The notes: a model not told the origin generated them from the letters alone. A stretch of 64,000 bases of DNA from Verrucomicrobiota bacterium (GCA_019239825.1 JAFAZK010000280.1:12563-76562); one strand, 5' to 3'; positions 38,944 through 55,787 are shown, counted from the stretch's first letter. Program-made: numbers and translations.

Positions 38944-39321
38944 ATGAAAAACCTATCAGGAAGATTCCGCTTGTTTATAGCAATGCTCGGCTGTTCAGCA
39001 TCCCTGGCTATTGGACAAAGCGTTGTTCGCGGTACGGACACCGCTCAACAGATCATGGCGTCAAATCAGAAGTTGTCGTTTGACGGCGCTAACAAGACTT
39101 TTCAAATCCTCGGTCATGATGACGAGGTTACGGTCACGGGCGATTGCTTCGCGGTTTCTGTGCTAGGCACCAACAACAAGGTGATCCTCGATGGGGTTGG
39201 CGTCATCCAAGCCGGCGGCAGCGGCAATTTGATTACCTATCGTCGGGGACTGAATGGGGACGCGACCCCTAAAATCGCGACGACTGGCGAGAACAATAAG
39301 GTGGTCGCTACCGGTCAGTAG
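38944..39321 (+). CDS. Secreted DUF3060-like protein (single domain)
   Basis: Paralogous to the first half of 37560-38264 (ASNQ.LS..G, GDC, LNGD.TP.IA..G). Confidence 0.75.
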   Translation: MKNLSGRFRLFIAMLGCSASLAIGQSVVRGTDTAQQIMASNQKLSFDGANKTFQILGHDDEVTVTGDCFAVSVLGTNNKVILDGVGVIQAGGSGNLITYRRGLNGDATPKIATTGENNKVVATGQ

Positions 39322-39423
39322 TGAGAAGTGATTGGTGAGAGGCGACCGGTGCCGCTGAGCTGTGGAGCGCTGCCTCGATTGCGAGGTAACGCTCCACGGA
39401 GCCGGTTCGATTGCCAATCATAT

Positions 39424-39858
39424 TTATCTTGCCGAACCCCGAAGCCGTTTCGCCAGATAGGATCGTTGATGGCCGCGGGGATAGTCTTCCAATGTGCCGA
39501 AGACCTTAAACCCGAGTTTTTCGTAGAATCCGGGTGCCTGATAGTCAAAGGTGTCCAGATAGATCGCATCGCACTCTTGCTCAACGGCCAAGGCTTCTGC
39601 GCGCGCCATTAATTCACGGCCGATCCCTTCTTTTCGGAACTGTCGGTCGACGTAAAGGCTTGAGACAAAGAAATGATTCCAGTGAGTAAAGCCTAACAGT
39701 CCCGCGATGAACTCGCCAGAGTCAGAACGCACGACAATAGCGAATTCCTTCTTGTTTCGCGGCCCTACCTGCGCCTCGTTGTAGGCGATCAAGGGGTCGA
39801 TGATGCTGTAACATTCTTCAGGCGTTGGCTCGGACCGCAAGGTATAGGTAAGTTCCAT
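39424..39858 (-). CDS. GNAT family acetyltransferase
   Basis: LYVDRQFRKEGIGRELM, LDTFDYQAPGFYEKLGF. Confidence 0.88.
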   Translation of the reverse strand: MELTYTLRSEPTPEECYSIIDPLIAYNEAQVGPRNKKEFAIVVRSDSGEFIAGLLGFTHWNHFFVSSLYVDRQFRKEGIGRELMARAEALAVEQECDAIYLDTFDYQAPGFYEKLGFKVFGTLEDYPRGHQRSYLAKRLRGSAR

Positions 39859-40110
39859 TGTTGGTCGCTGGGTCCACAACCCTAGAGAAGACCGCTTTTC
39901 AGATTGGCAGCTTTATCGTCCGGCATCAAGCGCCGGAATTGCCCAGCGGCGATTTACGATCGTCCTCGTATTCGTCGTCGTCCTCGTCCTCGATTTGTTT
40001 TTGGGCGTGTTCACCGGATAGGATTGCTCTCGGAAATATGCACTGGGTAGTTCAGCCTCTCTCCGGTTAGTCGCACCTTTTCGAGGACGAGGACGACGAC
40101 GATCGGTCCC

Positions 40111-43100
40111 CTACACCTCAAACGCCAGGATACGCGGAAGCTCGCCGGGATACGCAAAACATAGCAGCGAATATCCGATCCCGGAGATTCCGCGAAACAG
40201 GCTCGGTGAGAAGCAGAAGTTTTCGCCCACACTCTGTTGAAGACGAAAGAACGCTCCTCGCAGACCGCGTTCGAGAGTTTGCTCGATAAGATTCGCGGCA
40301 CTAGCCTGGAACTCAGGCCGGTTCTCCCGGCTGGCGATATAACTCAGGACCTCGGCAATGCCGAAGTTTCCGCAGCACCAGTGGTCCATGCTGCCTCGCT
40401 GGCGGATCTTTTCAACGACGATATCCAGCTCGTCGCGGGAAAGCTTTTGCGGTGTCTCCACGCCGACCGTGGCTAAAAGAATGCCGGCGGCGCCGTTGCA
40501 CCAGTTATTGAGAGAACCTTGCGGTCCTCTTACTGCGATTGGCCAAGAACTGTTTTTCGGGTCAAAAAAACCTCTCATCAGTTTCAAGGCTCGCTCAACG
40601 AGTTCGTTGAACTGTGGATCACAGAAAGTGCGGCTGTATTCGGTCAAGGCAAAACTGATGCCCGCTAAGCCGTGAGCAAAACCGACATAGGAATCGCCGT
40701 TAGACCTGGTCCAGCCGAGCTCGGGATGGTAACGAGCCGCCAGCATCCGAGCTGCAGCGAGCGCGTTGCCGGCCGCACCGGCGTCTTTTGTGACCTGATA
40801 AAGTCGTGTAAGCGCGACTAACAATCCGGCCACACCCGAGATTATGTCAGGCTCATCCGTTTCAGGCCTTAATTTGACTCTTTTATTCAGCGCTAGAGCC
40901 AGTGCAGTCCAATCACTGTCCTTGGTTAGCCTTCCCAGAACCAAAGCGCCGTAAATCAGAGCCCCGACTCCATTGCAGATACCGGGAGGATAGTCAGCAG
41001 GCGGCTCGAAGACAGCCAGCCTTTCCATGAATCTCGATCCCGGGCGTTTCGGGAAAGCGGATCCTGTTAACTGGTCAACCGCCGCTAGAAAAATGAGCGG
41101 CCCCATATCTCCCAGATAGATCCCTTCGCGGTGAGCAGCGCTGAGATCGCGCGGAAGAAAACTCGGCGGATCCCATAGATACGGGCCATCTGATTTACTG
41201 ATTCGCTGAGTTAATTCGTTAGCAAACTGCTGGACGACTGTTTCGGCCTGCGCGCCGGTTAACGGCTTTTCGATGGTCGCTGGAAAACGTCTGAGGGATT
41301 CCTGGATCACCTCCGTCTGAAAGCGGAAATCGTCTGCTCCCATGGCAGCGATTCGTTCGAAAACGATATCGATCGGTTTCTTTCGAGCCGCGCTGGGCAG
41401 ATGAAAGTTTCGACCAAGTAATTCCGTGCTGTTCAGCCGAATATGGAACCTCGGTATATCCAAGCCGAGCAATGACTGAACCTCGAAATCGATCAGCGTC
41501 TTGGTTTCTGGGGTTAGAGCGTTGTCTCGCAACGGGACACGATAAAGCTGCTCAAAAACGATGCTTTGGCGCACGCCAGAGGTCAGACATTTGGGAGCAC
41601 GTGCTTGCTTCAGCAGGAAACCATAAAGGGTCGTCGGACGGTAAACGAACCTGGTCTTACTTTGGGCAAATTGTTCGATTAACCGGCTAAACTCGGTTTT
41701 CCGATCTGATACGAAATGATAGAGCCGGCCAAAGCCCGTTATGAGTTCGGCTTGGTAACGCCGCACATCCTGGATCTCATTGCCCAAACGGACAGTGTTG
41801 CCGGCATGCCTGGGTGATCGCGGCTTGGTGACTGGCCGCATCTGGTCGGAGTTGAGATTTTCCCAGTCAGTCACGTTTGTGTGTGTTAGGTCCACAAAAC
41901 CGCTGCCCAGGCCGCAATAATCTGCCGGTACATGGGAGGCGCTTAATTGCCAGAAGGGCAACAAACCGGTCTCGATCACTGATGGGTTTCCTAGTTCCAA
42001 GACGTGCGCAGCGCCAGGTGTCGAATCGAACTTCGCGCTTCCACGTCCAGGGTGAAAAAATGATTCCGTGTCGATAGGAACCGGGCGATCGCCGGCAGCG
42101 ATCACATTTTCGAATCCCAGATCACATCCATTCAGCAGATAAGCCAGACAGAGGAGTTCGCCACCGCCCCGGTAATAATGCCGGACATCTTGGGCGTTTT
42201 GACAGGGAGATTGTTCGATAAATTCTTCCCAGCCATATTCCTCACGCTTGATTACTCGCGCCAGGCGCCAAGCCGCGGTGAATCCGACCCCGGCAAGCCA
42301 CCGATCAACTCGAACAAGCGCTTCAGCAATGGAAAGGTCTTTAGGCTTGTATAGCACCTGCTTGCCGTCGTCGAAAATGAGCAAGATCACTTGCTTACCT
42401 CCATCGTGCCGATCCGATATGCCCGTTTTTGTCCGTACTAGTTTTGGCCAGCGATTCTCTGACTGACCCAACGCGATCACTTCAGAAAAGTCAGTTCGGA
42501 GACGCTCCAGGAATAGGTTAGTGGAGTTAGTCCAGGATGTGAGTAAATGGCTGATCTGGCGGGCTAAAACCGGGAATCGTTCAAATAAGATCCGGTACTC
42601 GCTTTGGCGGACGCTTTGGATAAAGGTCTCGAAACTGCCGCCATTCTGCTGATGTTGAGAGAATTGCGCGAAGCTCGGGAAAGAAGCAAGTTCGGAGATT
42701 TCTTGGAGAAGCGAAAGCAGCAAAGAATCGATCGCCGATGCCGTCACGGCGTCGGGTGACAGCGATAAGTTCTGACGAGCGAAAGCGATCAGGGGTAGCC
42801 AGAGAACTGAAAATGGAAATGCTTGGCTCCCCTCCAAATCAACGGGGGGATACTGAAGAGCTTGGTTGAGAACTTCTTCCCATCGATCCCTTTGGGTCAC
42901 CGGTTCTGGCGGCTCGGAGGTGACATAAACGGCCTGCTCTTCGGAAACACCAAGCGATCTCAGGCGAGCAGAAAATCGGTCATAAGTGCCCGTCGTGAAT
43001 ACCTGTTTCCAATCGCGGAAATCGTCTCCGGGTTCCGGAGTTGCCTGGGGTTCGGTAGGCGCTGCGGCTAACCGCTCGTGAAGATAGTGAGCTTGGGCAG

Positions 43101-43125
43101 AGAGGGCAGCTAATGATTTAGACAT
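40111..43125 (-). CDS. lanM: Class II lanthipeptide synthetase
   Basis: Dehydratase motifs DRHDGG, YKPK, GWEEFI, DLGFEN, IDTE, RPTTLY; LanC-like motifs DIISG, GFAHG, WCNG, WCCG, LFRG. Confidence 0.93.
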   Translation of the reverse strand: MSKSLAALSAQAHYLHERLAAAPTEPQATPEPGDDFRDWKQVFTTGTYDRFSARLRSLGVSEEQAVYVTSEPPEPVTQRDRWEEVLNQALQYPPVDLEGSQAFPFSVLWLPLIAFARQNLSLSPDAVTASAIDSLLLSLLQEISELASFPSFAQFSQHQQNGGSFETFIQSVRQSEYRILFERFPVLARQISHLLTSWTNSTNLFLERLRTDFSEVIALGQSENRWPKLVRTKTGISDRHDGGKQVILLIFDDGKQVLYKPKDLSIAEALVRVDRWLAGVGFTAAWRLARVIKREEYGWEEFIEQSPCQNAQDVRHYYRGGGELLCLAYLLNGCDLGFENVIAAGDRPVPIDTESFFHPGRGSAKFDSTPGAAHVLELGNPSVIETGLLPFWQLSASHVPADYCGLGSGFVDLTHTNVTDWENLNSDQMRPVTKPRSPRHAGNTVRLGNEIQDVRRYQAELITGFGRLYHFVSDRKTEFSRLIEQFAQSKTRFVYRPTTLYGFLLKQARAPKCLTSGVRQSIVFEQLYRVPLRDNALTPETKTLIDFEVQSLLGLDIPRFHIRLNSTELLGRNFHLPSAARKKPIDIVFERIAAMGADDFRFQTEVIQESLRRFPATIEKPLTGAQAETVVQQFANELTQRISKSDGPYLWDPPSFLPRDLSAAHREGIYLGDMGPLIFLAAVDQLTGSAFPKRPGSRFMERLAVFEPPADYPPGICNGVGALIYGALVLGRLTKDSDWTALALALNKRVKLRPETDEPDIISGVAGLLVALTRLYQVTKDAGAAGNALAAARMLAARYHPELGWTRSNGDSYVGFAHGLAGISFALTEYSRTFCDPQFNELVERALKLMRGFFDPKNSSWPIAVRGPQGSLNNWCNGAAGILLATVGVETPQKLSRDELDIVVEKIRQRGSMDHWCCGNFGIAEVLSYIASRENRPEFQASAANLIEQTLERGLRGAFFRLQQSVGENFCFSPSLFRGISGIGYSLLCFAYPGELPRILAFEV

Positions 43126-43129
43126 AAAT

Positions 43130-43155
43130 AGCCGCCATCGGAACCGATGGCGGCT
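43130..43155 (-). terminator. GC-rich hairpin between precursor genes and lanM
   Basis: agccgccatcgg-aa-ccgatggcggct followed on the minus strand by ATTT and the lanM ATG. Confidence 0.65.
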
Positions 43156-43198
43156 TCAAAAATGCTTCGTCCTAGCAAATAAGTGCTATCGGCGCGGC

Positions 43199-43333
43199 TT
43201 AGGCGATGTTGACCGTGCTCAACACGTTGGAGCAGCTGACGCTCTGAATAGAGGTGGTATCGTTGATGCCGCCGGCAACGTCTTCGAGTTGTTCGTCGCT
43301 AATGGATTCTGGTTTGTTGGTTTCTTCGCTCAT
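43199..43333 (-). CDS. Double-glycine RiPP precursor A3 (44 aa)
   Basis: Hand translation MSEETNKPESISDEQLEDVAGG/INDTTSIQSVSCSNVLSTVNIA. Confidence 0.92.
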   Translation of the reverse strand: MSEETNKPESISDEQLEDVAGGINDTTSIQSVSCSNVLSTVNIA

Positions 43334-43399
43334 ATTATCCGTAGGTTTATGGTTCTCGTTTGTTAAGTCGGAATTGGCCGGCTTTTCTCTGGCGCGGCT

Positions 43400-43534
43400 T
43401 TAGGCGATGTTGATCGTGCTCAACACGTTGGAGCAGCTAACGCTCTGAATAGAGGTGGTATCATTGATGCCGCCGGCAACGTCTTCGAGTTGTTCGTCGC
43501 TGACCTGTTCTGGTTTGTTGGTTTCTTCGCTCAT
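43400..43534 (-). CDS. Double-glycine RiPP precursor A2 (44 aa)
   Basis: Hand translation MSEETNKPEQVSDEQLEDVAGG/INDTTSIQSVSCSNVLSTINIA. Confidence 0.92.
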   Translation of the reverse strand: MSEETNKPEQVSDEQLEDVAGGINDTTSIQSVSCSNVLSTINIA

Positions 43535-43603
43535 ATTAAATCGGTTTGTCCGGTTTTGGGTTTCTTTTAGGATCGGAGTTCGCCCATTCTTCCTGTGCCA
43601 GAC

Positions 43604-43738
43604 TTAGGCGATGTTGACCGTGCTCAACACGTTGGAACAGCTAACGCTCTGAATAGAGGTGGTATCGTTGATGCCGCCGGCTACATCCTCGAGTTGCTCA
43701 TCACTGATCGATTCTGGTTTGTTGGTATCTTCGCTCAT
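43604..43738 (-). CDS. Double-glycine RiPP precursor A1 (44 aa)
   Basis: Hand translation MSEDTNKPESISDEQLEDVAGG/INDTTSIQSVSCSNVLSTVNIA. Confidence 0.92.
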   Translation of the reverse strand: MSEDTNKPESISDEQLEDVAGGINDTTSIQSVSCSNVLSTVNIA

Positions 43739-43800
43739 ATGGTTGGGTGTACGGTTGGTTTGGTTTCTGGTTGTGGTTCTCGAATGCCGCGCTCGAGAGT

Positions 43801-44115
43801 TTAGAGGCTGGAATCCGGGCCTAAGAACGTGTTGTTCTCAGCGCTTAAGAATCCGCCCGCTATTGTTTCAAGCTCGGCGTCCGAAAGGTTTGCATTCTGG
43901 TCCGGGAAATCCTTTGGCAAGACGATGTACATCAGATCGTCTGTCTCTTGCAGGAGTACTACCTTCAGCCGATCCGGTAATGTGGTGCCTAGTGCTCGCT
44001 CGACGGCGAACTTTGGGTTCGCTAGCAAGGATTCCCGAAACGCCTCATCTTTCAAGGCCGCCCTTACGAGTACCTCTTTGACGTCTTTTCGTGAGATATT
44101 CGAGTTGGAATCCAT
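43801..44115 (-). CDS. NHLP (nitrile hydratase-like leader) family precursor
   Basis: RAALKDEAFRESLLANPK...VLP...LSDAELETIAGG then a 16-aa core FLSAENNTFLGPDSSL. Confidence 0.9.
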   Translation of the reverse strand: MDSNSNISRKDVKEVLVRAALKDEAFRESLLANPKFAVERALGTTLPDRLKVVLLQETDDLMYIVLPKDFPDQNANLSDAELETIAGGFLSAENNTFLGPDSSL

Positions 44116-44172
44116 TTCTACTCTTTGTCTCCGGTGTGCCCGACATCCACTTCCGTGTCCGCCGAGCTATTT

Positions 44173-44188
44173 AGCAATGGGTGTGCCA
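44173..44188 (-). promoter_or_regulatory. Sigma54 (-24/-12) promoter for the precursor-lanM operon
   Basis: Minus strand TGGCACACCCATTGCT matches TGGCAC-N5-TTGCW, 57 nt upstream of the NHLP ATG. Confidence 0.85.
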
Positions 44189-44271
44189 TAACTACGTCTG
44201 TTGATTCAAGTATCTGGGATATGGTCAGTTGCATACATTTAGCCATTTTAGCTTCCTGACTGAACAACCCA

Positions 44272-44316
44272 AAAATGGAACTCCGATTCTCGAAAATGGA
44301 ACGACAGCTCCATTTT
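44272..44316. promoter_or_regulatory. Candidate bEBP upstream activator sequence
   Basis: AAAATGGA-N8-TCCATTTT palindrome (44293-44316) plus a direct AAAATGGAAC repeat 21 bp away (44272). Confidence 0.55.
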
Positions 44317-44335
44317 AGGTTCGCGGTCCGCTGTT

Positions 44336-45499
44336 TCACTCCTCTGGCTTCAGGCGATGGTGCCGCAGAAAATCCATGAACTTTTGATAGTGTTCCGGCC
44401 TGATATTGAGTAGGACACTCATCCGGCGATAACTGCCTCTGGCTGCTAACAGTCCCTGGGAGATTATCTCGCGGACCTGAGCTCGATTTAAGTCGCGGTC
44501 GAGAAAAGGCTCATGAACGACGTCCCAAAACGACCTCCCCTGCTCGACCATATCCTCGAATAGTTCATTCTTGCCGGTGCCCGGACCAGGTAAACTTGCT
44601 TGGCGAAGCTCGCTGACAAAATGATCTGGCTCTATGTACTTTGATTCCGCCATGGAGAAGCCGATCGTGACGATGCTCCGGAGCTCCCGAACATTGCCCG
44701 GCCAGGGGTATCGCTCTAGAAACTTGATCGATGTAGGCGAGAATGCCTTCTTGAGGTTGTATTCCTGATTCAGCTTATCGACAAAATAACTAATTAATAG
44801 TTTCCAATCCTCATCGCGTTCCCGCAAAGCTGGGATATCCAAGGGAAAATAGCGGAGGCGGAAATAAAGATCTTGGCGAAAATGACCGGTGGCGATCATA
44901 TCGCGCAGCGGTCTGTTAGTGGCTGCTATTACCCGAACATCCACCGAATAGGTTTTGGTCGAGCCCAACGGTTTAACTTCCTTTTCCGCGAGTGCTCGCA
45001 GCAACATGGTCTGAGCAGTGGGAGGAAGATCACCGACTTCATCCAGGAAAACGGCGCCTCTGTCCGCCGCATCAAATAGACCTTTATGATCAGCGATGGC
45101 GCCGGTAAAGCTGCCTTTAACGTGCCCGAATAGTTCGCTAACGGTTACGTTGCCTTCGCTGTATTGTGGGCAATTGACCACCACAAAAGGCTCGCTAATG
45201 CGCGAGCTCATCAGATGGCAGGCTTTAGCAAATAACTCTTTGCCTACACCACTCTCGCCTGTGATCAGGATGGTTTGATTGAATTTGGCGAACTTTTGAA
45301 CTTTGTCTAAAGTGTCTCGCATTTTCGAACTGACACCGACTAGATCAACCGCTTGCTTTATTCCCCATTTCTCTAGGGACTTGACGCGGACCTGGAAGGC
45401 CACATCCGTCATGGTTTTGTCAGTTTCGCGGCTAACTTTCGTAGACGGAAACGGAACCACGTTAGCGGTACTATCGCTCTCCATAAATGCAAGACACAC
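44336..45499 (-). CDS. Sigma54-dependent activator (bEBP) without a recognisable sensor domain
   Basis: [45 protein letters not shown]; only about 50 aa precede the AAA+ domain. Confidence 0.9.
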   Translation of the reverse strand: MCLAFMESDSTANVVPFPSTKVSRETDKTMTDVAFQVRVKSLEKWGIKQAVDLVGVSSKMRDTLDKVQKFAKFNQTILITGESGVGKELFAKACHLMSSRISEPFVVVNCPQYSEGNVTVSELFGHVKGSFTGAIADHKGLFDAADRGAVFLDEVGDLPPTAQTMLLRALAEKEVKPLGSTKTYSVDVRVIAATNRPLRDMIATGHFRQDLYFRLRYFPLDIPALRERDEDWKLLISYFVDKLNQEYNLKKAFSPTSIKFLERYPWPGNVRELRSIVTIGFSMAESKYIEPDHFVSELRQASLPGPGTGKNELFEDMVEQGRSFWDVVHEPFLDRDLNRAQVREIISQGLLAARGSYRRMSVLLNIRPEHYQKFMDFLRHHRLKPEE

Positions 45500-45579
45500 G
45501 AGGCCGGGAACCGCCCTTATCCTCTACCTACTCTGGACCATACCAACTGTTTTTCCGCAAGATGCGCGTAGGGTCCTGT

Positions 45580-45646
45580 CCCATAAATAGCATGGCTTTT
45601 GCCGGCGGCCTATTCTGATCGCGACGAAAGCCATGTTATTTATGGG
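45580..45646. repeat. Intergenic long hairpin
   Basis: cccataaatagcatggcttt...aaagccatgttatttatggg (20-bp arms, one mismatch). Confidence 0.7.
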
Positions 45647-45666
45647 TAGTACCCTAAGTTACAGAA

Positions 45667-48618
45667 TCAGGCTAGTTGTCGTCTGGCGAGGTCGGCGAAT
45701 GGTCCCGCCTGATTCATCAACTCAGTGTAAGTCCCGGTCTGTGCGAGTTCACCATTTTGCAGCACGAATATTCGATCCGCATTGATGATCGTGCTCAACC
45801 GGTGCGCGATGACGATTCGGGTCGCCTGCATCGCGTCCAAACTTTCCGTGACTTTTCTTTGGGTTTCATTGTCCATGGCGCTGGTCGCTTCGTCAAAAAA
45901 GACAATGCGGGGCCGGTTTACCAGCGCTCGGGCAACCATTAGCCTCTGGCGCTGCCCCCCGGAAAAGGTGCCGCCTCCCTCCGAGACCACGGTGTGCATG
46001 CCCATGGGCATATTCTTGATGTCCCGGTCTAGACCAGCCATTCTCGCTGCTTCCCAAGCGTCGTTCACGCTTAGGTTGGTATGTGAACCGATAATGTTCC
46101 GATAAATGTCGGTGGGCATCAGCCGGCTGGATTGCAGGACAACGCCGATCTGCTGGCGAACTTCGCGGATATCCAAAGAAGACATTTCCTGGCCGTCGTA
46201 AAAAATTGCGCCTGATTCGGGTTTTTCGAAGCCAAGGAATAACCGCAAGAGCGTCGACTTGCCCGAACCTGATCCTCCAACTAGAGCCACGAACTCGCCA
46301 GGCCTGATGCGCAGCGAGATATCTTTCAAAATCAATGGTGCATCCTGGTTGTATCGGAACGAAAGGTGGTAAACCTCCAACTCACCGCTCAACTCGCCGG
46401 GGTGGGCTTTTGCCTCATCGATTTCGGGTTGGGCTTCGATAACGGGCCGAAGCCGCTGGAACAAAGGTAAGATCATTAAAAGATCCAACACGACCGTACT
46501 CAGTGACAACATGCTTGAGAGGACGTTGGTAAATACTCCGTTAAACGCCACGAATTGGCCGGTGGTCATGTTGAATTTCTCTTGTCCCTGCGCAGCCTGA
46601 TCCTTGAACCAGCCATATAAAAGGAATAGCAGAGCCGTCGCGATCACGGGATAAACCCGGCTGAAAACTTGAACGATATTCCCGAGAAATTCGACTCGGA
46701 AGGCCAGCCTTTTCTGAGTCGAGAACTTCCTGGTCCATTCCCGGAACGCAGAATCTTCGGCGCCGGACACTCGGATTTTCGCAACCCCGTTTATCAGCTG
46801 CAGAACCAAGCCTGTAATTAATCCTCGGATGCGGAACATCTGCCGCTGGTTCGTCAGCTGCATCAAGTTGATGCAGAGCGGTAAGATCACGGAGAAACCG
46901 ATAAGACCGAACGCCGCCCAGGCCATCTTGGCGTTGAACGTAAAAAGGAAGATGCCGGTTATCAATGTGCTGATAGCACCGACGATGGCTTGAGTACCGG
47001 ATTGAGAAATAGCCTGCCGAATCTGTTCGACTCCCAATGCCCGGTCTGTGAGGTCACCTGAGGTATAGTCGCGAAAGAATTGAGATGGCAGGTTGAGTAG
47101 ACGGTCCCAGACGCCTGCTTGTACGGAATAATCCATTTTGCCGGTCAGGCGGAGGACGGCGATCGAACGAGTTAGTTCGAAAGCGAATGTGCCTAAGGCG
47201 GCCGCGAAAAGCCCAACGGCAAATTGAGCCAGTTGACTGCGATCGGCAGCGGGAATAACGCTGTCGATGATCTGACCGCTGAAGTACGGCGTTACCATTC
47301 CCAAAAACCCAACTAACACTCCCATCAGGCTGATGGTGCGCAGATCGGCGTGACAAGTCCGCATGCCGAATTTAATCAGGTCCCAAGCACCAAGCCGCCT
47401 TTCCGGTAGAGGCGTATATAAAGAAACGGCGAAGGGCGACAGAGTGGCAGCGCTTGAAGCAGTAACCACAACGCGTTCCACCGTGCGTGGGTCCGCTAAC
47501 TCATACGTCGTGTGTCCGGTTTTCAAAATCGCGACTGGCTCGAGGGTGCCCTCGCGAAACGCTAGCAATGGGCCATGATCGACTTCCCACCACTCGCCTC
47601 GGAGCGCTATGGTGCGGTACCGGAACCGGGAAGCCTTTGCGATCGCTGCGAGTTTATCGCTGACTTGAAAAAGATCGGCTGGGACCTTGACCTGAATGCC
47701 GGATGCCTCTCCTACGAGCCGGCAAGCGATGACCAGGGGATTGCCGGAAGGGTCGGCGAGCAGGCCGGCCGTCTGGAGTTCGCGACGAGTCGCCAGCACG
47801 GAGGCGATTTCGCGCAGAGCGGTATCGCGCGACCGCAAACCGGACGCCTCTCGCGCACGCAAGCGATTAAAATCATCAACAATTCTGAGCTTCTTATTGA
47901 TGAACTCGCATTGGCACAACACCTCGTGGAATAGCCCAAGGCCGATCCAGAAAGTAGGTTGGGTGATGCTGGCAGGAGAGGAAAAACATGACAGCAGGTT
48001 ATCGTCATAAGATTCGATCCATGTGTCCGAAGACAGAGGAAGGATAGGAACCCCTTCACCGGATAAAGAGACTCCTTCCATACCCATGTAAAGCGCTTCT
48101 CCGCGCAGGACCTGTATCCACACGATCCCGCGGCGCGCTCGAGCGATCTTGCCGCGAGGCAGTAACACTTGCTTACCGCCGACGAGAACCTCATCCGCTT
48201 TTGGTAGTGGCCTCGTATCGCGCGAGACACTGGCAGAAAGCTGTTCGAGCCAGTGATCGATGAGTTGGCTGAGAGTAGCAGCGTATTCGTGATCGCGTGC
48301 CAGCCGTCTCAGATCATCTTGACGCAGCCCGACCAGCTCCGAGCCTTCGCGACCGGTGAGCAAAAAACAGTAACCGTGCGCTTGCTTGTTAAAGTCCATC
48401 CCGAAAATCAAGGAACCTGGCTCCAGCGAAAGGAAGTGTGACCGCGGGCCGGTAGCTTCGCCGGCTTCGAGCTGCACGGTGAAAATTTCAATCCGGCCCG
48501 TGGCGATAAACCAGACGTTCTCAGATCCTTCAACGACGAAAGATTGGTTCAACCGGAGGACCTGTAGTTCACCGGATTGAATGAGAGCGTTACTAAGAGC
48601 TGCTGAAATGGCCGGCAT
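45667..48618 (-). CDS. NHLP/NHLM-type ABC transporter, permease/ATPase (no active peptidase)
   Basis: Long N-terminal region, TM domain, GGSGSGKST, FSGGQRQR, DEATS. Confidence 0.9.
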   Translation of the reverse strand: MPAISAALSNALIQSGELQVLRLNQSFVVEGSENVWFIATGRIEIFTVQLEAGEATGPRSHFLSLEPGSLIFGMDFNKQAHGYCFLLTGREGSELVGLRQDDLRRLARDHEYAATLSQLIDHWLEQLSASVSRDTRPLPKADEVLVGGKQVLLPRGKIARARRGIVWIQVLRGEALYMGMEGVSLSGEGVPILPLSSDTWIESYDDNLLSCFSSPASITQPTFWIGLGLFHEVLCQCEFINKKLRIVDDFNRLRAREASGLRSRDTALREIASVLATRRELQTAGLLADPSGNPLVIACRLVGEASGIQVKVPADLFQVSDKLAAIAKASRFRYRTIALRGEWWEVDHGPLLAFREGTLEPVAILKTGHTTYELADPRTVERVVVTASSAATLSPFAVSLYTPLPERRLGAWDLIKFGMRTCHADLRTISLMGVLVGFLGMVTPYFSGQIIDSVIPAADRSQLAQFAVGLFAAALGTFAFELTRSIAVLRLTGKMDYSVQAGVWDRLLNLPSQFFRDYTSGDLTDRALGVEQIRQAISQSGTQAIVGAISTLITGIFLFTFNAKMAWAAFGLIGFSVILPLCINLMQLTNQRQMFRIRGLITGLVLQLINGVAKIRVSGAEDSAFREWTRKFSTQKRLAFRVEFLGNIVQVFSRVYPVIATALLFLLYGWFKDQAAQGQEKFNMTTGQFVAFNGVFTNVLSSMLSLSTVVLDLLMILPLFQRLRPVIEAQPEIDEAKAHPGELSGELEVYHLSFRYNQDAPLILKDISLRIRPGEFVALVGGSGSGKSTLLRLFLGFEKPESGAIFYDGQEMSSLDIREVRQQIGVVLQSSRLMPTDIYRNIIGSHTNLSVNDAWEAARMAGLDRDIKNMPMGMHTVVSEGGGTFSGGQRQRLMVARALVNRPRIVFFDEATSAMDNETQRKVTESLDAMQATRIVIAHRLSTIINADRIFVLQNGELAQTGTYTELMNQAGPFADLARRQLA

Positions 48619-48735
48619 AAGACTGGACCTATCAGCGGTCCACTCTACGGCAGCGGAATATTCCGGCTACGCCGGACCATTCCGCTGCACTGGCGGAAGA
48701 TGTTGTTAATAGTATCTCGTTCATTCTTTCAGATA

Positions 48736-48822
48736 GGCAGTTAGATAGGCGCTAACGCCTATCTAACTGCCCATAGCCTGCGTTCTTAAAAAATCGCCGA
48801 CGATTTTTTAAGAACGCAGGCT
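48736..48822. repeat. Two adjacent perfect hairpins
   Basis: 16-bp arms with 4-nt loop (48736-48771) and 22-bp arms with 4-nt loop (48775-48822). Confidence 0.9.
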
Positions 48823-48824
48823 GG

Positions 48825-51008
48825 CTAGTGGCTTATCAATTTCGAGTACGGTCCTCCTGCGTTTTTCATCGATTCATGAGTTCCTCGTTCCGCCACTTTC
48901 CCGTATTCCAAGACGATGATTTCGTCGCAGTCCCGGATACTACTCAGCCGATGCGCCACAATTAAACAAGAGCAACCGCGACGCCGCAGATTTTGATCGA
49001 TCTGTTCCTCGGTGCTCGGATCCAAAGCGCTGGTGGCCTCGTCCAGGATCAACAAACTCGGCGAGTTGACCAACGAACGCGCAATCTCCAGGCGTTGACG
49101 TTGTCCCCCCGAAAAGTTAACCCCACCTTCAGAGACTTGGCTGGACAGACCGCCTTGACGGGAAGCGACTACATCGGCGATGGCTGCATCCTTGCAGGCT
49201 TGTGTGATGTGCAAATCTGGTATCCCGGTGTCCCACATGGTAAGGTTGTCTCGAACCGTGCCTTCGAACATAAAAATATCCTGATCGACCATCGCGATCG
49301 AATTATGCAAAAGGCGTGGCGGGATTTTGTCTCGAGGGACACCGTCCAAGAGTATCTCTCCGCTCCAGGGCTTAAAAAGCCCGGCAACAATCTTGGAAAC
49401 CGTAGACTTACCACTCCCACTTCCACCAACTAGCGCTACCCGATGCCCTGGCCGAATACTGAAGCTGAGGTCCGCAATCAGCGGCGGCGCCAGCGGATTG
49501 AAACCGAAGGTCAGATTGCGCACATCGAGCTGACCGCTGAGCTTAATCGTCGCGTCAAACCGCGGGTCGACTGACTGTTCTTGGAGATACGCCGAGTCTA
49601 TTTCGTAGCGCAGAACATCATCCAAACGATTCAAATCGGAACCGGTCTCTTGTAACACGTTACCAAAGGTTACAAAAGAGGTAATCGGCTTGGTAAATCC
49701 GTCCATCAGCGACTGGAAAGCAACCAGCAAACCGATAGTTAGATGCCCGTCCATGACCCGCCAGCCGCCTAACCCGAGGATCGTGGCAGTGATCAGGGCC
49801 TTGGTAAACGGCGGAACGGCGGAGAGACTTTGACCATAAAAATCCATCTCTTGTTCGGCCTGAATGGTCTTGGCTTGATAGCCTCCCCAACGGGCAAAAA
49901 ACTCGTTCTCGCCGCCTGTCGCTTTGAGAGTTTCGATCATCTGCACGCCGTTCATCGAAGTACCCATTAGTTTTCCGCGCTCTTGCAGAAGCCGGAAACT
50001 CGCGTCAACTCTCGGGCGTTGAACCAGTTTGACGCCGAGGAGGTTGAGCATGGCCAAAGAGACGCACGCCAGGGTGAGCCAGACATCGTATTGAAACATT
50101 ACCAGGGCGAAAAACAGGAGCGCCATCAGGTCAAGAGCCGTGGTTACCATTTTGTCGGACAGCACCTTGGCCACTTTGTCATTGATCAGCACCCGCGAAC
50201 CGATCTCACCCGCATAACGCTGGGAGAAAAACTCCATCGGCAGCCGGATAACATGGGTAAAAAATTTAGCGGATGTGGTTAATGCCAGCTTGGTCTCCAG
50301 TCGCAAAAGGAAGTGCCTCTGCAAGGCGACAAGGAAGAGCATGAAAAGAATCGAGACCCCCATGGTCGAAAGCAGGGGACGCAAAATGTCAGTTTTATCG
50401 CCGATGAGAAATTCATCGATAAAAACGCGCGTGAACGAAGGGTTAACAATGTTGGGGATGATCAGCAGCAGCCCCGTCAACAACGCGTAACTCAACCCGA
50501 TCTCGAAACCAGAAACCCGCCGGCGCAATGCTGCTGCGAGACTCGGCTTTTCTCCGCCCGGAGTAAAACTCGGACCTGGCTGAATAGTTAGGACAACGCC
50601 GGTGAAAGAAGCCTCGAGCTCTTCGAGCGCAACTCTGCGCGGTCCAGTCGCAGGATCATTAAGATAAACCTTACCCTCGGCGACCCCTTCATATACCAAA
50701 AAATGATTGAAATTCCAATAGAGGATCACCGGCGGCTTCATCTTCAGCAGAGCCTCTAGCTCGCAGCGGATACCCTGACTCACCATCCCGTACCGGCGGG
50801 CCGCTTTGAGTAGATTACTCGCCTTACTACCATCCCGGCCGACACCGCATTCCAGTCGGAGTTGTTCCAGCGGAATCCAGAGATTGTGATAGCGAAAAAT
50901 GACGCCCAGGGCGGCTGCTCCGCATTCCACCGCCTCCATCTGCAACAAGGTTGGGGTGATCACTCGATCCGGAAGCCGCTCTTCCGCTGGCAGACTGGGT
51001 ACGCTCAT
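48825..51008 (-). CDS. NHLP/NHLM-type ABC transporter with C39 peptidase
   Basis: QMEAVECGAA (Cys), WNFNHF (His), LNDPA (Asp); TM domain; GGSGSGKST. Confidence 0.93.
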   Translation of the reverse strand: MSVPSLPAEERLPDRVITPTLLQMEAVECGAAALGVIFRYHNLWIPLEQLRLECGVGRDGSKASNLLKAARRYGMVSQGIRCELEALLKMKPPVILYWNFNHFLVYEGVAEGKVYLNDPATGPRRVALEELEASFTGVVLTIQPGPSFTPGGEKPSLAAALRRRVSGFEIGLSYALLTGLLLIIPNIVNPSFTRVFIDEFLIGDKTDILRPLLSTMGVSILFMLFLVALQRHFLLRLETKLALTTSAKFFTHVIRLPMEFFSQRYAGEIGSRVLINDKVAKVLSDKMVTTALDLMALLFFALVMFQYDVWLTLACVSLAMLNLLGVKLVQRPRVDASFRLLQERGKLMGTSMNGVQMIETLKATGGENEFFARWGGYQAKTIQAEQEMDFYGQSLSAVPPFTKALITATILGLGGWRVMDGHLTIGLLVAFQSLMDGFTKPITSFVTFGNVLQETGSDLNRLDDVLRYEIDSAYLQEQSVDPRFDATIKLSGQLDVRNLTFGFNPLAPPLIADLSFSIRPGHRVALVGGSGSGKSTVSKIVAGLFKPWSGEILLDGVPRDKIPPRLLHNSIAMVDQDIFMFEGTVRDNLTMWDTGIPDLHITQACKDAAIADVVASRQGGLSSQVSEGGVNFSGGQRQRLEIARSLVNSPSLLILDEATSALDPSTEEQIDQNLRRRGCSCLIVAHRLSSIRDCDEIIVLEYGKVAERGTHESMKNAGGPYSKLISH

Positions 51009-52324
51009 TAATTCTTGATTCCCAGGATCTCTTTGATTTTTGGAATGACGAACTCGACCGGGGGCTTACGCTCAACCACGATGGATGCTTGGGCTAACGT
51101 GCCGCTGAAAATACCCGTAGGCGGGCCCTGTGACGAAGACCATTTGTAGCCGCTCTTGGTTGTCGGATCAGGATACAGTTCGGCGGTTACTTCAATGGGC
51201 GCACCTTTTGACGTGAGGTCCTTAACTAGTTCGTCGTTTCGCAAAACGACTTTCATCCCGTCCGGCGTACTTGGAAAATAGGAGACACTCGAAACCTTTC
51301 CCAGGATGAAACCGTACTCCTCCGCTTTCACCGTCGAAGGCGAAATCTGGATCTCCTGACCCGTTATTACCTTTTTGCCTTGTCCGGCCGGCACGTAGAT
51401 CACCGCCTCCATCTTGGCGTCTTCCGCCTCCACCGTAATGATCCTGTCCTTGGAGCTGACGGGAGATCCTCTTTCCACTAACTTTTCAATGACCCGGCCG
51501 CTGTAGCGGCAGATGACCTTAGTGCCGGCGTCTTTCTCTTCCCGGAGTTGGTTCAAGTCCAGGGCGCTTTGATTAATTTCTTTGAGACGCGCGTTTCGCT
51601 GGGTTTGAGTTTCCCGGACCAGTTTAATCTCGCTGGTCCGGATCTCGCTCATCTTTACTTGGGTATCGGCCGCTTGTAATTGCACCGCATAAAGAGCGTC
51701 TCTGGCTTTGTTGACCGAAGCCTGAGTAGTCAACCCTTTCTGGAGAAGGTTTGATTGGTTGTCGAATTCGGTTTGGTCAGCGTCAATTTGCACTTTATAA
51801 CTCTTTTGGGCCGCCTCCATCGCCTTCTCTTCCTTCTCGTAGTCGGTAATCGCAGCGTTATCGCTTTTGGTTTCACGGGCGGTCATATCGGCATCTTGCG
51901 CCTGCAAAAGTTTGAGCTGCGCTTCCTGGGTCCTGATCTTTAACTCCAATTCTGACTGGCTCATCGTAGCCACGATCTGGCCGGTCGTAACTTCGTCACC
52001 AGGTTTGACCAGGACTTGGGTAACAAACCCGTCATTAGCGGCAGCCACGTCGTAGACAGCGCCTCCCCGAATCAGAATTCCACTTCCGCTAACCGTGTCC
52101 GGAATTCGCCCCAGAAAACCCCAGAGCAGGATCAGAAACAGGATTAGACCTAAGGCCGAGACCGCCAGCCAGCCGGCCGGCGAGGTAATCGACATTAAGT
52201 AATCAAGTTGCTCGGGGGAGGAGAGGCGCTCCAAAGCGGCTCTCCGAAAGATGCTCCGTTCGGTGGCGCCGTTGCTACTGGTGCCATGGTGGCCGGCCTG
52301 AGATGTATTTGATGTTTGGCTCAT
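51008..52324 (-). CDS. NHLM-type HlyD family secretion protein
   Basis: IFRRAALERLSSPEQLD, EEYGFILG, YKWSSSQGP; TAATG coupling to the transporter. Confidence 0.92.
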   Translation of the reverse strand: MSQTSNTSQAGHHGTSSNGATERSIFRRAALERLSSPEQLDYLMSITSPAGWLAVSALGLILFLILLWGFLGRIPDTVSGSGILIRGGAVYDVAAANDGFVTQVLVKPGDEVTTGQIVATMSQSELELKIRTQEAQLKLLQAQDADMTARETKSDNAAITDYEKEEKAMEAAQKSYKVQIDADQTEFDNQSNLLQKGLTTQASVNKARDALYAVQLQAADTQVKMSEIRTSEIKLVRETQTQRNARLKEINQSALDLNQLREEKDAGTKVICRYSGRVIEKLVERGSPVSSKDRIITVEAEDAKMEAVIYVPAGQGKKVITGQEIQISPSTVKAEEYGFILGKVSSVSYFPSTPDGMKVVLRNDELVKDLTSKGAPIEVTAELYPDPTTKSGYKWSSSQGPPTGIFSGTLAQASIVVERKPPVEFVIPKIKEILGIKN

Positions 52325-54317
52325 AGTTCCGGTCCTTCAAAACGGGGCCCACCGGTTCTCTCACATCTGGAACTGTCTCGAAAGCTTGCTCGGTTATATT
52401 CGCTTGTTCGACTGCTTTCGGAAATCCGGGGACCCGCAGCGCGGTCTCTTGCGACAGCAGGGTCGCAGTTTCATATCTCAAGTCGACAATAGCGTTGGCC
52501 AGAGCTAAGCGAAAATCGACCAACTGAGTTTCCGCGGTCGTCAGTTGCTCTTCCGACTGGATAGTCTCGAACATGGTGGTTGCACCTCGGCGAAACTTTT
52601 CCCGCATGTCGTTAAAGGACTTTCTGAACGCAATCACCGCATCATGCTGAGTCTCGACGTCCGAACCCAGTTCTTGAATGGTGTCCGCACTCGCGGTCAC
52701 GCTTGCGGCGATTGTAGTAGAAAGATCCTCCATCTGAATGATAGCTTGGTTCAGGTCGGATTGGGCCAGCACTACACCCCCCTTGGAACTGTTGTTGGCA
52801 AACGGCCAAGCTAACTGCGCTCCAAGCGATAAATCCAAACCGAGCTTGGTGCCTCGCTGGCTCTGGCCACTTGAGCTCGTTATCTTTTCGTTGTTGATGT
52901 CAGTCCCGATTCCGGTGGTTAGACTCGGGTATATAATGAGATCTTCCTTCGCTTTGGCTAAGCTCACCTGTTTTGACCTGATTGTCTGCAAGGCAGCAGC
53001 TCGATCGAGCCTCCGAGCCAGAGCCTCATCCACCAAAGCATCGGTGTTCAAGATTCTCGGCTGATGCTCGCTGACATCGGGGAAAGATTGAAATGCGAGC
53101 GGCAACCGGTGCAGTTGATCAGTTCTCAGACCGATGGTGATCGCCAGTTTCTTGGCAGCATCATAAACGGAAACTAATGCCTGTGTCCGTTGCGCGAATG
53201 ACTGCGAACGACGGCCCTCGGCCAGCGTGACTTCACTGTAAGGAACTCCGCCTCCCTCCGCCATCTGCTTAGATAAATCCTCAAGAATAGAGTCAACCCG
53301 ATAGGCGCGATCTTGCAGCGCAAATTTCTGCAAAGCGGATACCATTCCCCAGTACGCCTGGGCCGTGTCTGAGGCCGTCTTCTGAGCCTGGTTCCGTAAC
53401 GTTAGTAACCTGCCTTCGTAATCGATGCGTGCCTCAATCTCTTCTGCGTCGTTGTACAGGACGCCAGCTTTCTTGAAGACCGGGATGTTAGCGGTCATCA
53501 CAATTCGGTTCGTAGTCGGAGGGTATTTGTTGTTACCGGCCTGATCCACCCAGATCGGTTGATACAAAATAGACATGTCAATCCCGTTTCGAAATTTTTT
53601 GCTCAGTGAAACTTCCGTATCGATCGAGTCCGTCGCCTTTAGTTCCTGGCTCTGAACCGCTTGGGTAATTGCGCTGTTGATAGTCGAACTGCTGGCCGGG
53701 ATGCCAACGGAACGAAAGATGGAGGGCAGCGCCGAGCTTAGCACTTGCTGATTCGCGTCCAGAGAGGTATTGCTGGCTTCCGCTGGAATCGAGTGGGCGT
53801 ATTTAGCAATTAATAGTGCCGTAGTGTCGAAGTCGCCTACCTTTTGTTGAAGTTTGCCTTTCGCCGATTGCGAGTCTTCGGAAGATAGTCGCAAGTCTTT
53901 GTTTTGAACGAGTGCGATTCTCACTGCGTCGAGCAACGAAAGAGAGAACAGACCTGGCGGCGTGAGTTCAGTTAATGAGAGCGCGGATTCGAATTTCTGA
54001 TCAAACTCCTCTGCCTGCTGTTGCGTGATTCCGCCGACTACCTCACCTGTTCCGCCTGGACCGGTCGGGCTCGGCGATGGTAGTTGCCCAGGTGGGATCA
54101 ACGGCTTTATCTCATTGCGGTTACCTCCATGCTGCGGAAGTTCAATGGGTGCGCTTGAGGTTGGTGTGGGCGACGGTATCGCCGGTGGAACTGCCGGCGT
54201 AGTTTGAGCTTGCCCGGCAACTAAGAGGGTTGTTTCAAAGCCGATCAAACCGGCAATGCTTAACAAACTGAAGCGCAAAACATCCAACTTCGTCCTGCGA
54301 TAATGAAGAGATTCCAT
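52275..54317 (-). CDS. TolC-family outer membrane efflux protein
   Basis: LSLLDAVRIALVQN, two OEP-like repeats, first gene of the export operon. Confidence 0.82.
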   Translation of the reverse strand: MESLHYRRTKLDVLRFSLLSIAGLIGFETTLLVAGQAQTTPAVPPAIPSPTPTSSAPIELPQHGGNRNEIKPLIPPGQLPSPSPTGPGGTGEVVGGITQQQAEEFDQKFESALSLTELTPPGLFSLSLLDAVRIALVQNKDLRLSSEDSQSAKGKLQQKVGDFDTTALLIAKYAHSIPAEASNTSLDANQQVLSSALPSIFRSVGIPASSSTINSAITQAVQSQELKATDSIDTEVSLSKKFRNGIDMSILYQPIWVDQAGNNKYPPTTNRIVMTANIPVFKKAGVLYNDAEEIEARIDYEGRLLTLRNQAQKTASDTAQAYWGMVSALQKFALQDRAYRVDSILEDLSKQMAEGGGVPYSEVTLAEGRRSQSFAQRTQALVSVYDAAKKLAITIGLRTDQLHRLPLAFQSFPDVSEHQPRILNTDALVDEALARRLDRAAALQTIRSKQVSLAKAKEDLIIYPSLTTGIGTDINNEKITSSSGQSQRGTKLGLDLSLGAQLAWPFANNSSKGGVVLAQSDLNQAIIQMEDLSTTIAASVTASADTIQELGSDVETQHDAVIAFRKSFNDMREKFRRGATTMFETIQSEEQLTTAETQLVDFRLALANAIVDLRYETATLLSQETALRVPGFPKAVEQANITEQAFETVPDVREPVGPVLKDRNYEPNIKYISGRPPWHQ

Positions 54318-54452
54318 GGCAGATGTTCAGAGCGAGGGTCAGAGCCTATCCTTAACGCCGTTTTGGCATAAGCCTCCGATCTAAACAAGTGCGAAAAAAA
54401 GTGAATCTGCTTTACCGTTTTTTCTCGGTTCGTTTACGATTCCTACGAGCTT

Positions 54453-55217
54453 ATGGAAGTTGCGGTTGAAATCGTTGAGGGCAAACCAGTTCTGGTGTTT
54501 TCCCGGCGTCTTGATGATGAAGCCGCCGGACGATTCAGTCGAGAATTAGGCCTTTGGGTTGAACGGTTACTCACAAAAGGAATGTCCGATTTAGCGATCG
54601 AATTTTCCGGGGTCTCATATATTACCAGCGCGATACTCCGGTCGCTCTTGTCGATGGCTAAGCGAGTGCGAGCAAGGGGTGGGACCCTTTGTATCCTGAA
54701 CCCCAGCGCTGAAATCCAAGAAACATTTGGAGTCATTGGCTTTCGGGAGATCTTTGAATCTTATGGCGGCAAATTCAGGCTGAGCCTTCCGGCGGTCCCG
54801 CTACCACAGCGTACCCCGGCCGAGACTGCCCAACTTGATATTATTGTCGGCAATCGCGTGTTCGCTTGCGCCGACGGTGATACTCTTGGAACTGAAGGAT
54901 CGTTAGGGCCTGAGTTGTTTTCGGACTTGCCTGGCGTCGCCGCCCGACCCGTCCGCTTCCAAAACGCCGGCAGTCACTGGGTGGCGCTTGTGGGGGCCAA
55001 CCCCGGATCTATTGTTCGCGTCGATAGTCAAGTGGTGGCTCCGGGCCAAGAAGCTATTCTTAAAGACGACCACGTTCTTCAGATCGGTGAGGTGAGAGTC
55101 CGCGTTCACGTGACCTTACCCGAAGGCACCAGCCGTGAAGGCGAATCGATTAATGTCCAAGTCCAAGGCGTGTTCTCCCAAACCGCAGAATGGATCGACA
55201 AGGCGTTGAAGGAGTGA
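54453..55217 (+). CDS. STAS (anti-sigma antagonist) plus degenerate FHA-like domain protein
   Basis: SGVSYITSAILRSLL...K...GG.L STAS motif; C-terminal beta-rich region ending in LQIG. Confidence 0.7.
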   Translation: MEVAVEIVEGKPVLVFSRRLDDEAAGRFSRELGLWVERLLTKGMSDLAIEFSGVSYITSAILRSLLSMAKRVRARGGTLCILNPSAEIQETFGVIGFREIFESYGGKFRLSLPAVPLPQRTPAETAQLDIIVGNRVFACADGDTLGTEGSLGPELFSDLPGVAARPVRFQNAGSHWVALVGANPGSIVRVDSQVVAPGQEAILKDDHVLQIGEVRVRVHVTLPEGTSREGESINVQVQGVFSQTAEWIDKALKE

Positions 55218-55253
55218 GGGCCGCGGAAATGACAAAATGACAGATGACAAATG

Positions 55254-55579
55254 GAGGCGTGACTCGCTCAGCGCTCCTGGAGGGGAGCCGCTTTTGACCG
55301 TCCTGAGTCAAAAAACCGTCTCTGAAAGATTACGTTTGCCGATAGTCAGCGCGTGTTGGCAGGCGGCTCCCGCGAACGTTTCCTGATGCCCGCCACGACC
55401 TGCAGCGTCTCCGTTAGCTCAATGATCCAAATTTTCCGAGCAACCACACGCGGAGACGTTTGCGGGAGCCGCCCGCTAACACACGTTTGGTGAAACCACG
55501 ATTTTAAGCATGATGCCGCCAGCGGTCTGCCGCAGTCAAAAGCGGCCCCCCTCCAGGAGCGCTGAGCGAGTCACGCCTC
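55254..55579. repeat. Nested-palindrome element family A, copy 5
   Basis: About 45-bp terminal IR with one mismatch (GAGGCGTGACTCGCTCAGCGCTCCTGGAGGGG...). Confidence 0.9.
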
Positions 55580-55787
55580 AATCAGCCATCTGCTATCTGT
55601 AATTTCCCGGGCTCCGGCGCCTCCGCTATTAATATAGAGCCGTTGGCCACAGCATGGTGGCCGCTCGAATAACTCTGCTTTGCTGTCAATGCAATTTGCA
55701 CGAGATTGTGGCGTTTCGATTGCGATATTACGCATCTTGAAGCAATGCGATTTCGTTAATGCTCTGAAGATAAGGCACTTACAACTT

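Follow-up and report, generated by a model that had tools for sequence, protein, structure and literature searches.

Class II lanthipeptides are made by LanM synthetases, and in the ProcM-like group of these enzymes zinc is bound by three Cys residues (CCG motif) rather than by Cys-Cys-His. In the prochlorosin system of marine cyanobacteria, the enzyme ProcM serves many ProcA precursors, whose long leaders end in GG, and is accompanied by a C39-type exporter. Part of this description is found in passages of PMC10783134, and the remainder is general background. The NHLP/NHLM bacteriocin export systems are recognised by the families TIGR03793, TIGR03794, TIGR03796 and TIGR03797. Among the two-component systems, one bicereucin peptide is reported to lack a lanthionine. 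For carnolysin as well as bicereucin, the relevant passages of PMC11519912 describe one LanM and two precursor types. Here we describe a gene cluster at positions 40111-54317 (minus strand) of a 64-kb stretch of DNA from a Verrucomicrobiota bacterium (GCA_019239825.1, JAFAZK010000280.1:12563-76562), in which a LanM, an NHLP export cassette, two kinds of precursor peptide and a sigma-54 activator stand together. The whole 64-kb stretch is referred to as the window.

The cluster works most like ProcM-type lanthipeptide clusters joined to an NHLP export cassette, and is a known kind of system in variant form, not a new one. In our view it is probably a class II lanthipeptide operon of the ProcM-like kind, functional and lineage-restricted, in a soil genus of Chthoniobacterales; it would most likely secrete a one-ring peptide together with a linear NHLP-derived peptide. 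Judged from its sequence and that of its relatives, the cluster is real, conserved and probably functional, and three of its conserved traits are unusual: a dedicated sigma-54 switch, a DxH motif without its His in the synthetase, and single-Cys cores paired with a Cys-free NHLP peptide. To our knowledge, Verrucomicrobiota are abundant in soil and almost unexplored for RiPPs (peptides made by the ribosome and modified after translation).

The likeness to the prochlorosin system lies in the three-Cys zinc site of the LanM, the several precursors per enzyme, the long leader ending in GG and the C39-type exporter. The differences are that the leaders here are of the NHLP kind or truncated to 22 aa, and not Nif11; that the cores carry one Cys or none; that the precursors lie in one operon with a predicted dedicated sigma-54 activator; and that the DxH His is lost here, whereas 135 of 150 ProcM-like representatives retain it. 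All four NHLP/NHLM families are present above their cut-offs, and the cassette stands beside an NHLP gene in many distant loci; however, the window has a single, Cys-free NHLP copy, placed first behind the promoter, and the activator does not occur within 10 kb of NHLP in the distant loci. Carnolysin and bicereucin come from Firmicutes and have LanJ reductases and ordinary leaders, whereas a reductase is absent here. A two-component lantibiotic consists of two different mature peptides that work in synergy; the present cluster encodes two precursor types. One-Cys cores beside a LanC-domain enzyme also link the cluster to the 179 single-Cys, lanthionine-cyclase-associated peptides predicted in passages of PMC11251773, none of them experimentally defined there. 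The histidine enrichment reported in those passages is not seen in the present cores, and Verrucomicrobia are absent from the main text of that paper.

Precursor peptides

Gene families in the window were scored against Pfam and the curated cut-offs of NCBIfam (TIGRFAM-type models). Ten open reading frames, all on the minus strand and in the same direction, occupy 40111-54317 with the lengths given in a preliminary description of this DNA: a TolC-like outer-membrane protein, a HlyD-type adaptor, two ABC exporter subunits (ABC1 and ABC2), a sigma-54 enhancer-binding protein (bEBP), an NHLP-leader peptide, three short precursors and a LanM. That description had named the genes as an NHLM/NHLP export system, a LanM, an NHLP peptide without Cys and three short-leader precursors with a single Cys, together with a consensus sigma-54 promoter; the curated scores, the translations and an exact promoter match bear it out. 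It had also called the cluster self-contained, which agrees with the host genome, a metagenome-assembled genome (MAG) of 6.67 Mb (95.8% complete, 8.1% contamination) that holds one NHLP gene and one LanM and encodes rpoN (426.7 bits, cut-off 277).

The NHLP-leader peptide (43801-44115, minus strand; 104 aa) scores 70.9 bits against TIGR03793, above the cut-off of 50.9. Its 88-aa leader ends in ...AELETIAGG and is followed by a 16-aa core, FLSAENNTFLGPDSSL, with zero Cys. There are 60 database homologues, of which the named ones are Chthoniobacterales or Verrucomicrobia. In 28 of 30 aligned homologues the core is free of Cys, and in most it starts with FL and has a stable length. For the ratio of non-synonymous to synonymous change (dN/dS), the leader gives 0.03-0.10 and the core 0.1-0.5, the latter being noisy with 16 codons. 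When the window is compared with the relative L001, 4 core differences are synonymous and none is non-synonymous, and this purifying selection argues that the core is not junk.

The three short precursors, each of 44 aa, are encoded on the minus strand at 43604-43738, 43400-43534 and 43199-43333, and were recognised as open reading frames in a tandem array (period 201, 2.7 copies) in which the coding parts are near-identical and the spacers have diverged. A 22-aa leader ending in GG precedes a 22-aa core with exactly one Cys, INDTTSIQSVSCSNVLST[V/I]NIA. The short peptide has 16 database homologues, and Cys34, Asp25, Leu38 and Ser39 are invariant in 16 sequences. Short cores are of several types with one Cys each, and in the type LFDNNFCIAGQKATVNVLS there is no Ser or Thr before the Cys, so any thioether formed there must join a downstream residue. 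The CTB bacteriocin model NF038167 aligns with leader residues 1-28 only, at 21.6-23.6 bits and thus under its cut-off of 32, and we do not assign the peptides to that family.

The C-terminal motif [S/T]D-x-[E/Q]-L-E-x-[I/V]-A-G-G is common to the NHLP and the short leaders. In one relative (L065/P0060) the NHLP leader bears a Cys-containing core that resembles the core of its short neighbour, from which the two leader kinds appear to feed one pathway.

The LanM synthetase

The enzyme (40111-43125, minus strand; 1004 aa) scores 572.8 bits against TIGR03897 (cut-off 304) and consists of an N-terminal DUF4135 dehydratase domain (321.5 bits) and a C-terminal LANC_like cyclase domain (144.8 bits). 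Its best solved relatives are LicM2 (E 5.9e-55) and CylM. The zinc site is made of C876 (WCNG), C917 and C918 (HWCCG), where LicM2 has Cys-His. This three-Cys arrangement (CCC) is found in 149 of the 150 best representatives and places the enzyme in the ProcM-like group.

Its residues were mapped onto CylM and LicM2, using the list of nine catalytic residues in the CylM passages of PMC4550811. Eight of the nine are kept (CylM D252, H254, K274, D347, N352, D364, R506 and T512), and the ninth, His349 of the DxH motif, is Gly337 here. The loss is a trait of the whole clade: the histidine is gone in all 13 relatives that cover the segment, with G, W, L or Q instead, and it is kept in 31 of 31 distant NHLP-linked loci. 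Among full-length enzymes it is lost in 10/10 of the clade vs kept in 21/21 outside it. The ten clade LanMs also keep the cyclase His and the three zinc Cys; apart from D252 replaced by E in L008 and T512 by S in L007, L008 and L066, their catalytic residues are otherwise retained.

A search of 1.84 billion representatives recovered 8 clusters for the clade, with scores of 581-1117 bits. Outside it, full-length proteins reach at most 371 bits, with a 759-residue partial sequence at 480 bits in between. Among the best 150 matches, those without the DxH His are the 8 clade clusters and 6 scattered others, and position 337 is among the only five columns in which at least 7 of 9 clade sequences depart from a residue that is at least 90% conserved in the others. 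The literature that we searched for a LanM 'DxH motif' gave the CylM structure paper only. According to its passages (PMC4550811), CylM-H349A yields only a small amount of dehydrated product, and the catalytic base is left open between His349 and Asp347. We infer that the clade LanMs are active enzymes that use the Asp; such a set of otherwise intact LanMs without the DxH His bears directly on the question left open in those passages.

Sigma-54 promoter, activator and putative attenuator

A sigma-54 -24/-12 promoter of the form TGGCAC-N5-TTGC lies at 44174-44188 (minus strand), in the 220-bp spacer between the bEBP and NHLP genes. It is the sole exact match (TGGCACACCCATTGC) in the window and one of 8 that a strict search finds in the genome. 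By number, such motifs are no commoner than chance predicts, since with up to 1 mismatch the window has 2 sites against 3.79 expected; the promoter is therefore supported by where it stands in the spacer and by being conserved: all 18 relatives (19 of 19 regions when the window is counted) have a TGGCAY-N5-NNGCT element upstream of the NHLP start, at a distance of 56-76 nt. With an activator loop of the GAFTGA type, the -24/-12 promoter and rpoN, all three parts expected of sigma-54 regulation are predicted from the sequence. Spacers before the TolC-like gene, bEBP and ABC2 and the spacer that follows lanM contain no sigma-54 site of 8/11 or better.

The activator gene (44336-45499, minus strand) encodes 387 aa from a GTG, with an ATG at codon 6. 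The preliminary description had called the activator sensor-less and dedicated, and both terms fit what we find. Sigma54_activat (202.6 bits) covers residues 54-220 and AAA_lid_14 residues 226-302; Walker A reads GESGVGKE and the loop GSFTGA. Neither a receiver nor a sensor domain is present, and residues 1-50 and 290-387 are without any Pfam domain (E up to 5). In having an AAA+ domain plus a C-terminal DNA-binding region and no N-terminal regulatory domain it resembles the PspF-type bEBPs, with whose models it aligns end to end below their cut-offs. PRK11608 aligns over residues 52-383 at 183 bits vs a cut-off of 529, so the protein is not a PspF equivalog; the cluster also has no PspA-like partner, and the target here is a RiPP operon.

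A candidate upstream activator site at 44272-44316 (minus strand) consists of the palindrome AAAATGGAGCTGTCGTTCCATTTT and a third half-site, GTTCCATTTT. The site lies about 85-130 bp upstream of the -24 element, and in the 6.67-Mb genome its full motif occurs once. If one mismatch is permitted, all 13 relatives that carry the bEBP, or whose sequence is too short to decide, have a palindrome of the TGGAGC-N-GTTCCA type, as does none of the 5 that lack the bEBP. These five bEBP-less upstream regions (L005, L006, L067, L068 and L123, the last from genome G165) all keep the sigma-54 promoter and a conserved hairpin in the 5' untranslated region. In four of the five (L067, L068, L006, G165) a palindrome of another type, TCCCA-N-TGGGA, stands some 120 nt upstream; L005 has no clear counterpart, and the window lacks this type. 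In relatives, the bEBP gene is 40-90 bp behind ABC2 on the same strand, and it is plausible that the activator is co-expressed with the exporter.

Directly before the lanM ATG, a GC-rich hairpin of 11 pairs with a T-rich tail (43130-43155, minus strand) forms a putative attenuator. It is the top terminator-like site in 39300-55900. A hairpin and T-run recur at the same position with differing stems in L001/L002/L063, L004, L064, L008 and L066; the retained position with changed stems would fit an attenuator that holds precursors above the level of the enzyme. In the full-text literature that we searched, no lanthipeptide operon is described as being under sigma-54 control, and for nitrile hydratase leader peptides together with sigma-54 only unrelated work came up. 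Paired with a predicted site that is unique in the genome, such a dedicated activator would be a clean regulatory part.

Distribution and conservation

Scans of genomes and metagenome contigs gave 118 loci, and the close relatives among them (L001-L008 and L061-L069) have NHLP identities of 58-94%. The synteny in relatives that the preliminary description had asked about is found in MAGs of Chthoniobacterales and in soil contigs, and the titles of the close relatives, either Verrucomicrobiota or Chthoniobacterales, agree with the lineage that it had suggested. The order exporter, bEBP, NHLP, one to four short precursors and LanM is seen in L001, L002, L004, L063, L064 and L066, and again in G084, a 20-contig genome of the host's own genus. 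Among 201 genomes sampled from the order, 6 have an NHLP homologue: 5 of 5 in the own genus, the host included, and 1 of 9 in a sister genus; 15 other families in this sample have none.

A bEBP homologue of at least 65% identity adjoins the NHLP gene in 10 clade loci; of the 101 loci whose NHLP identity is 46% or less, none has one within 10 kb. In four clade members (L005, L067, L068, G165) the bEBP is missing, and the NHLP gene comes directly after ABC2.

Identities to the window run in pairs, with bEBP/NHLP vs LanM/short precursor at 96/94 vs 52/72 in L001 and 83/74 vs 82/98 in L004. As the partners in each pair are adjacent, the pairing could stem from one recombination event. The precursor region itself is recombinationally active. 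In P0077 the NHLP N-terminus is fused straight to a short-type leader and core. Three extra short precursors stand ahead of the NHLP gene in L062 and L063, and in L002 a second sigma-54 promoter drives three extra short precursors at that place. As a separate observation, ABC1 and LanM of L005 (4362-6530 and 10963-13952) align piecewise in different frames; these broken frames are probably assembly frameshifts, with pseudogenes as the alternative.

Contigs in three soil metatranscriptome libraries, from three studies, contain parts of 43000-45600. Two of them, from different studies, cover 43672-43974 and 43672-43853 with 3 differences in one and 0 in the other. Both run from the 3' end of the NHLP gene into the leader of the first short precursor and then diverge in the core, which indicates that they come from relatives. 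DNA may occur in such libraries and these contigs show no transcript start, so they hint only faintly at transcription.

Proposed operation and alternatives

In the operation that we propose, the exporter genes and the adjacent sensor-less bEBP would be expressed first. The bEBP would bind the palindromes at 44272-44316 and activate sigma-54 RNA polymerase at 44174-44188, and the resulting transcript would cover the NHLP gene together with all three short precursors, as the conserved anatomy of the region suggests. The hairpin before lanM would let only part of the transcription pass, so that precursors outnumber the enzyme. The LanM would then read the shared leader end, dehydrate Ser and Thr, and form one thioether on the single Cys of the short cores, a ring that in at least one core type would close on a residue C-terminal to the Cys. 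As is known for these families, the C39 domain would cut after GG, and ABC1, ABC2, HlyD and the TolC-like protein would export the products. The NHLP precursor might use the same leader end and exporter and leave as a linear 16-aa peptide, perhaps dehydrated, to act beside the ring peptide; of all the steps, this one is the weakest.

Several observations weigh against this operation. The NHLP core need not be a LanM substrate, for in P0054 it has no Ser, Thr or Cys. A DxH His that LanMs conserve is lost, and dehydration could be slow or different, since CylM-H349A is impaired (PMC4550811, in its CylM passages) and the present LanM has Gly at that place. Neither an immunity gene nor a second tailoring enzyme was found in the cluster. 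The relatives that have no bEBP (L005, L067, L068, G165) still have the promoter, and no sigma-54 site precedes the bEBP or the TolC-like gene to account for the activator's own control.

A stronger version of the proposal would make the cluster a distinct class II sub-type, in which a DxH-His-less LanM forms a single 'reversed' thioether (Cys onto a C-terminal dehydro residue), a linear NHLP-borne partner is obligatory, and the whole operon is gated by its dedicated sensor-less sigma-54 activator. Co-expression of the activator with the exporter would then mean that precursors are made only once export is in place. We regard this version as rather unlikely.

Three other explanations concern the same facts. 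The cluster might be decaying, its LanM crippled by the missing DxH His and no lanthipeptides made: His349 is conserved among LanMs, the passages of PMC4550811 describe CylM H349A as strongly impaired, and the residues that replace it in the sub-lineages (G/W/L/Q) are chemically unrelated. This seems improbable to us, given that the other checked catalytic and zinc residues are kept save for two swaps, both conservative, among four of the 10 clade enzymes, that the 1004-aa frame is intact, and that precursors, promoter and exporter are conserved across a genus; the DxH His is also gone in 6 of the other 141 ProcM-like representatives, which implies that its loss is tolerated in nature. Alternatively, the long NHLP leader could be the functional part, for example as an in-trans activator or chaperone of the LanM or the exporter, with the core a dispensable tail. 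The very strong purifying selection on the leader would agree with this, as would its length, far beyond the 22-aa leaders that suffice for the short precursors; but the core is itself constrained in dN/dS and in the window-L001 comparison, its length is stable with an FL start in most homologues, and one relative places a Cys-containing core on the NHLP leader. We therefore give this explanation, too, a small chance.

The third explanation takes the NHLP 16-mer as an unmodified secreted pheromone that is sensed by the neighbouring kinase and NtrC-type regulator (55810-59189). What speaks for it is that nearly all NHLP cores are Cys-free and one has no modifiable residue, that the core differs between strains while the leader is fixed, and that the two-component system adjoins the cluster in the window, L004, L005, G165 and G084, with another arrangement in L066 and L007. 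However, orthologues of the kinase, 57-66% identical to it, are present in no fewer than 16 genomes of the family in which the same NHLP query found no homologue, so that the two-component system is a conserved neighbour and not co-inherited with the cluster. In addition, no sigma-54 site ties it to the exporter or the bEBP, and the window promoter has the bEBP-type palindrome only. A pheromone role is accordingly very improbable, and we retain the lanthipeptide operon as the preferred explanation.

The preliminary description had further seen an undescribed combination of parts. Full-text literature searches found no published match to the cluster (papers on Chthoniobacter and lanthipeptides were judged by title or abstract), although the supplements of PMC11251773 and of the genome-mining paper PMC4289311 might list relatives, and to that extent the claim stands. 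Its novelty was over-rated, because all building blocks are known families, single-Cys LanC-associated peptides had been predicted before in passages of PMC11251773, and two-component systems with a single LanM are known from those of PMC11519912. The lost DxH His, the CCC zinc site, the enhancer site, the putative attenuator hairpin and the core type in which any ring must close downstream go beyond that description. As a compact unit, the cluster offers a testable entry to single-Cys lanthipeptides.

Export genes

Three genes make up an NHLP/NHLM export system, all scoring over their cut-offs. The HlyD-type periplasmic adaptor for NHLP export (51008-52324, minus strand) reaches 333.2 bits against TIGR03794 (cut-off 156.2). 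ABC1 (48825-51008, minus strand), the subunit with peptidase, permease and ATPase, reaches 1040.2 bits against TIGR03796 (cut-off 853.3); its residues 20-146 match Peptidase_C39 (110 bits), and its translated N-terminus has Gln23, Cys29 and His102, which we take to be the catalytic set of the C39 domain. ABC2 (45667-48618, minus strand; 983 aa) scores 900.3 bits against TIGR03797 over residues 292-982 (cut-off 709).

ABC2 has an extra N-terminal domain of about 290 aa. Its first 300 aa were modelled with a mean predicted local distance difference test (pLDDT) score of 86.8, and Foldseek matched the model to the tandem cyclic-nucleotide-binding domains of PKA regulatory subunits (E 5e-9). According to this model, residues 1-290 fold as tandem cyclic-nucleotide-binding-like barrels. 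The extension aligns with the ABC2 of distant NHLP loci at 22-36% identity and is a feature common across phyla. When ABC2 residues 1-300 and the NHLP peptide were predicted as a complex, to see whether this domain might receive the leader, the result gave no support and is uninformative either way. Between ABC1 and ABC2, a 206-bp spacer (48619-48824) contains two long near-perfect inverted repeats, one of them with a stem of about 22 bp.

The TolC-like outer-membrane efflux protein (52275-54317, minus strand; 680 aa) matches Pfam OEP in two stretches (83.5 bits). Against TIGR01844 it scores 42 bits, far under the cut-off of 225, and it is thus an OEP-family member and not a TolC equivalog. 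Its first 300 aa contain zero Pfam domains (E up to 5). The gene is syntenic in L001, L004, L005, L064, L066, G084 and G165.

Flanking genes and elements

Downstream of the cluster are a GNAT gene in the same orientation and DUF3060 genes. The GNAT acetyltransferase (39424-39879, minus strand; 151 aa) follows lanM throughout the own genus, with a duplication in G084, but was not seen after lanM in L005, L007, L008 or L066. A role as tailoring enzyme, considered on the example of nostolysamide, was rejected: the cores are without Lys, and only in the own genus does the gene come after lanM, alongside the unrelated DUF3060 genes. The adjacency is probably synteny rather than tailoring. In the spacer after the lanM stop (39880-40110), an inverted repeat has GAC/GAG-rich arms of about 21 bp spaced about 100 nt apart, and it may be a terminator or another repeat element.

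The upstream flank, on the opposite strand, encodes a STAS protein, an NtrC-type response regulator and a histidine kinase. The spacer between the STAS and response regulator genes contains an element (55253-55590) that resembles a miniature inverted-repeat transposable element and has inverted ends about 45 bp long. Its 18-base end motif has 234 copies in the 6.67-Mb genome, and a similar sequence occurs in the bEBP-NHLP spacer of L001. Two weak sigma-54-like sites on the plus strand, TGGCGT-N5-TTGCG at 55709-55724 and AGGCTC-N5-TTGCT at 55788-55803, are about 100 and 20 nt ahead of the NtrC-type regulator gene, and the two-component operon may itself be sigma-54-dependent.

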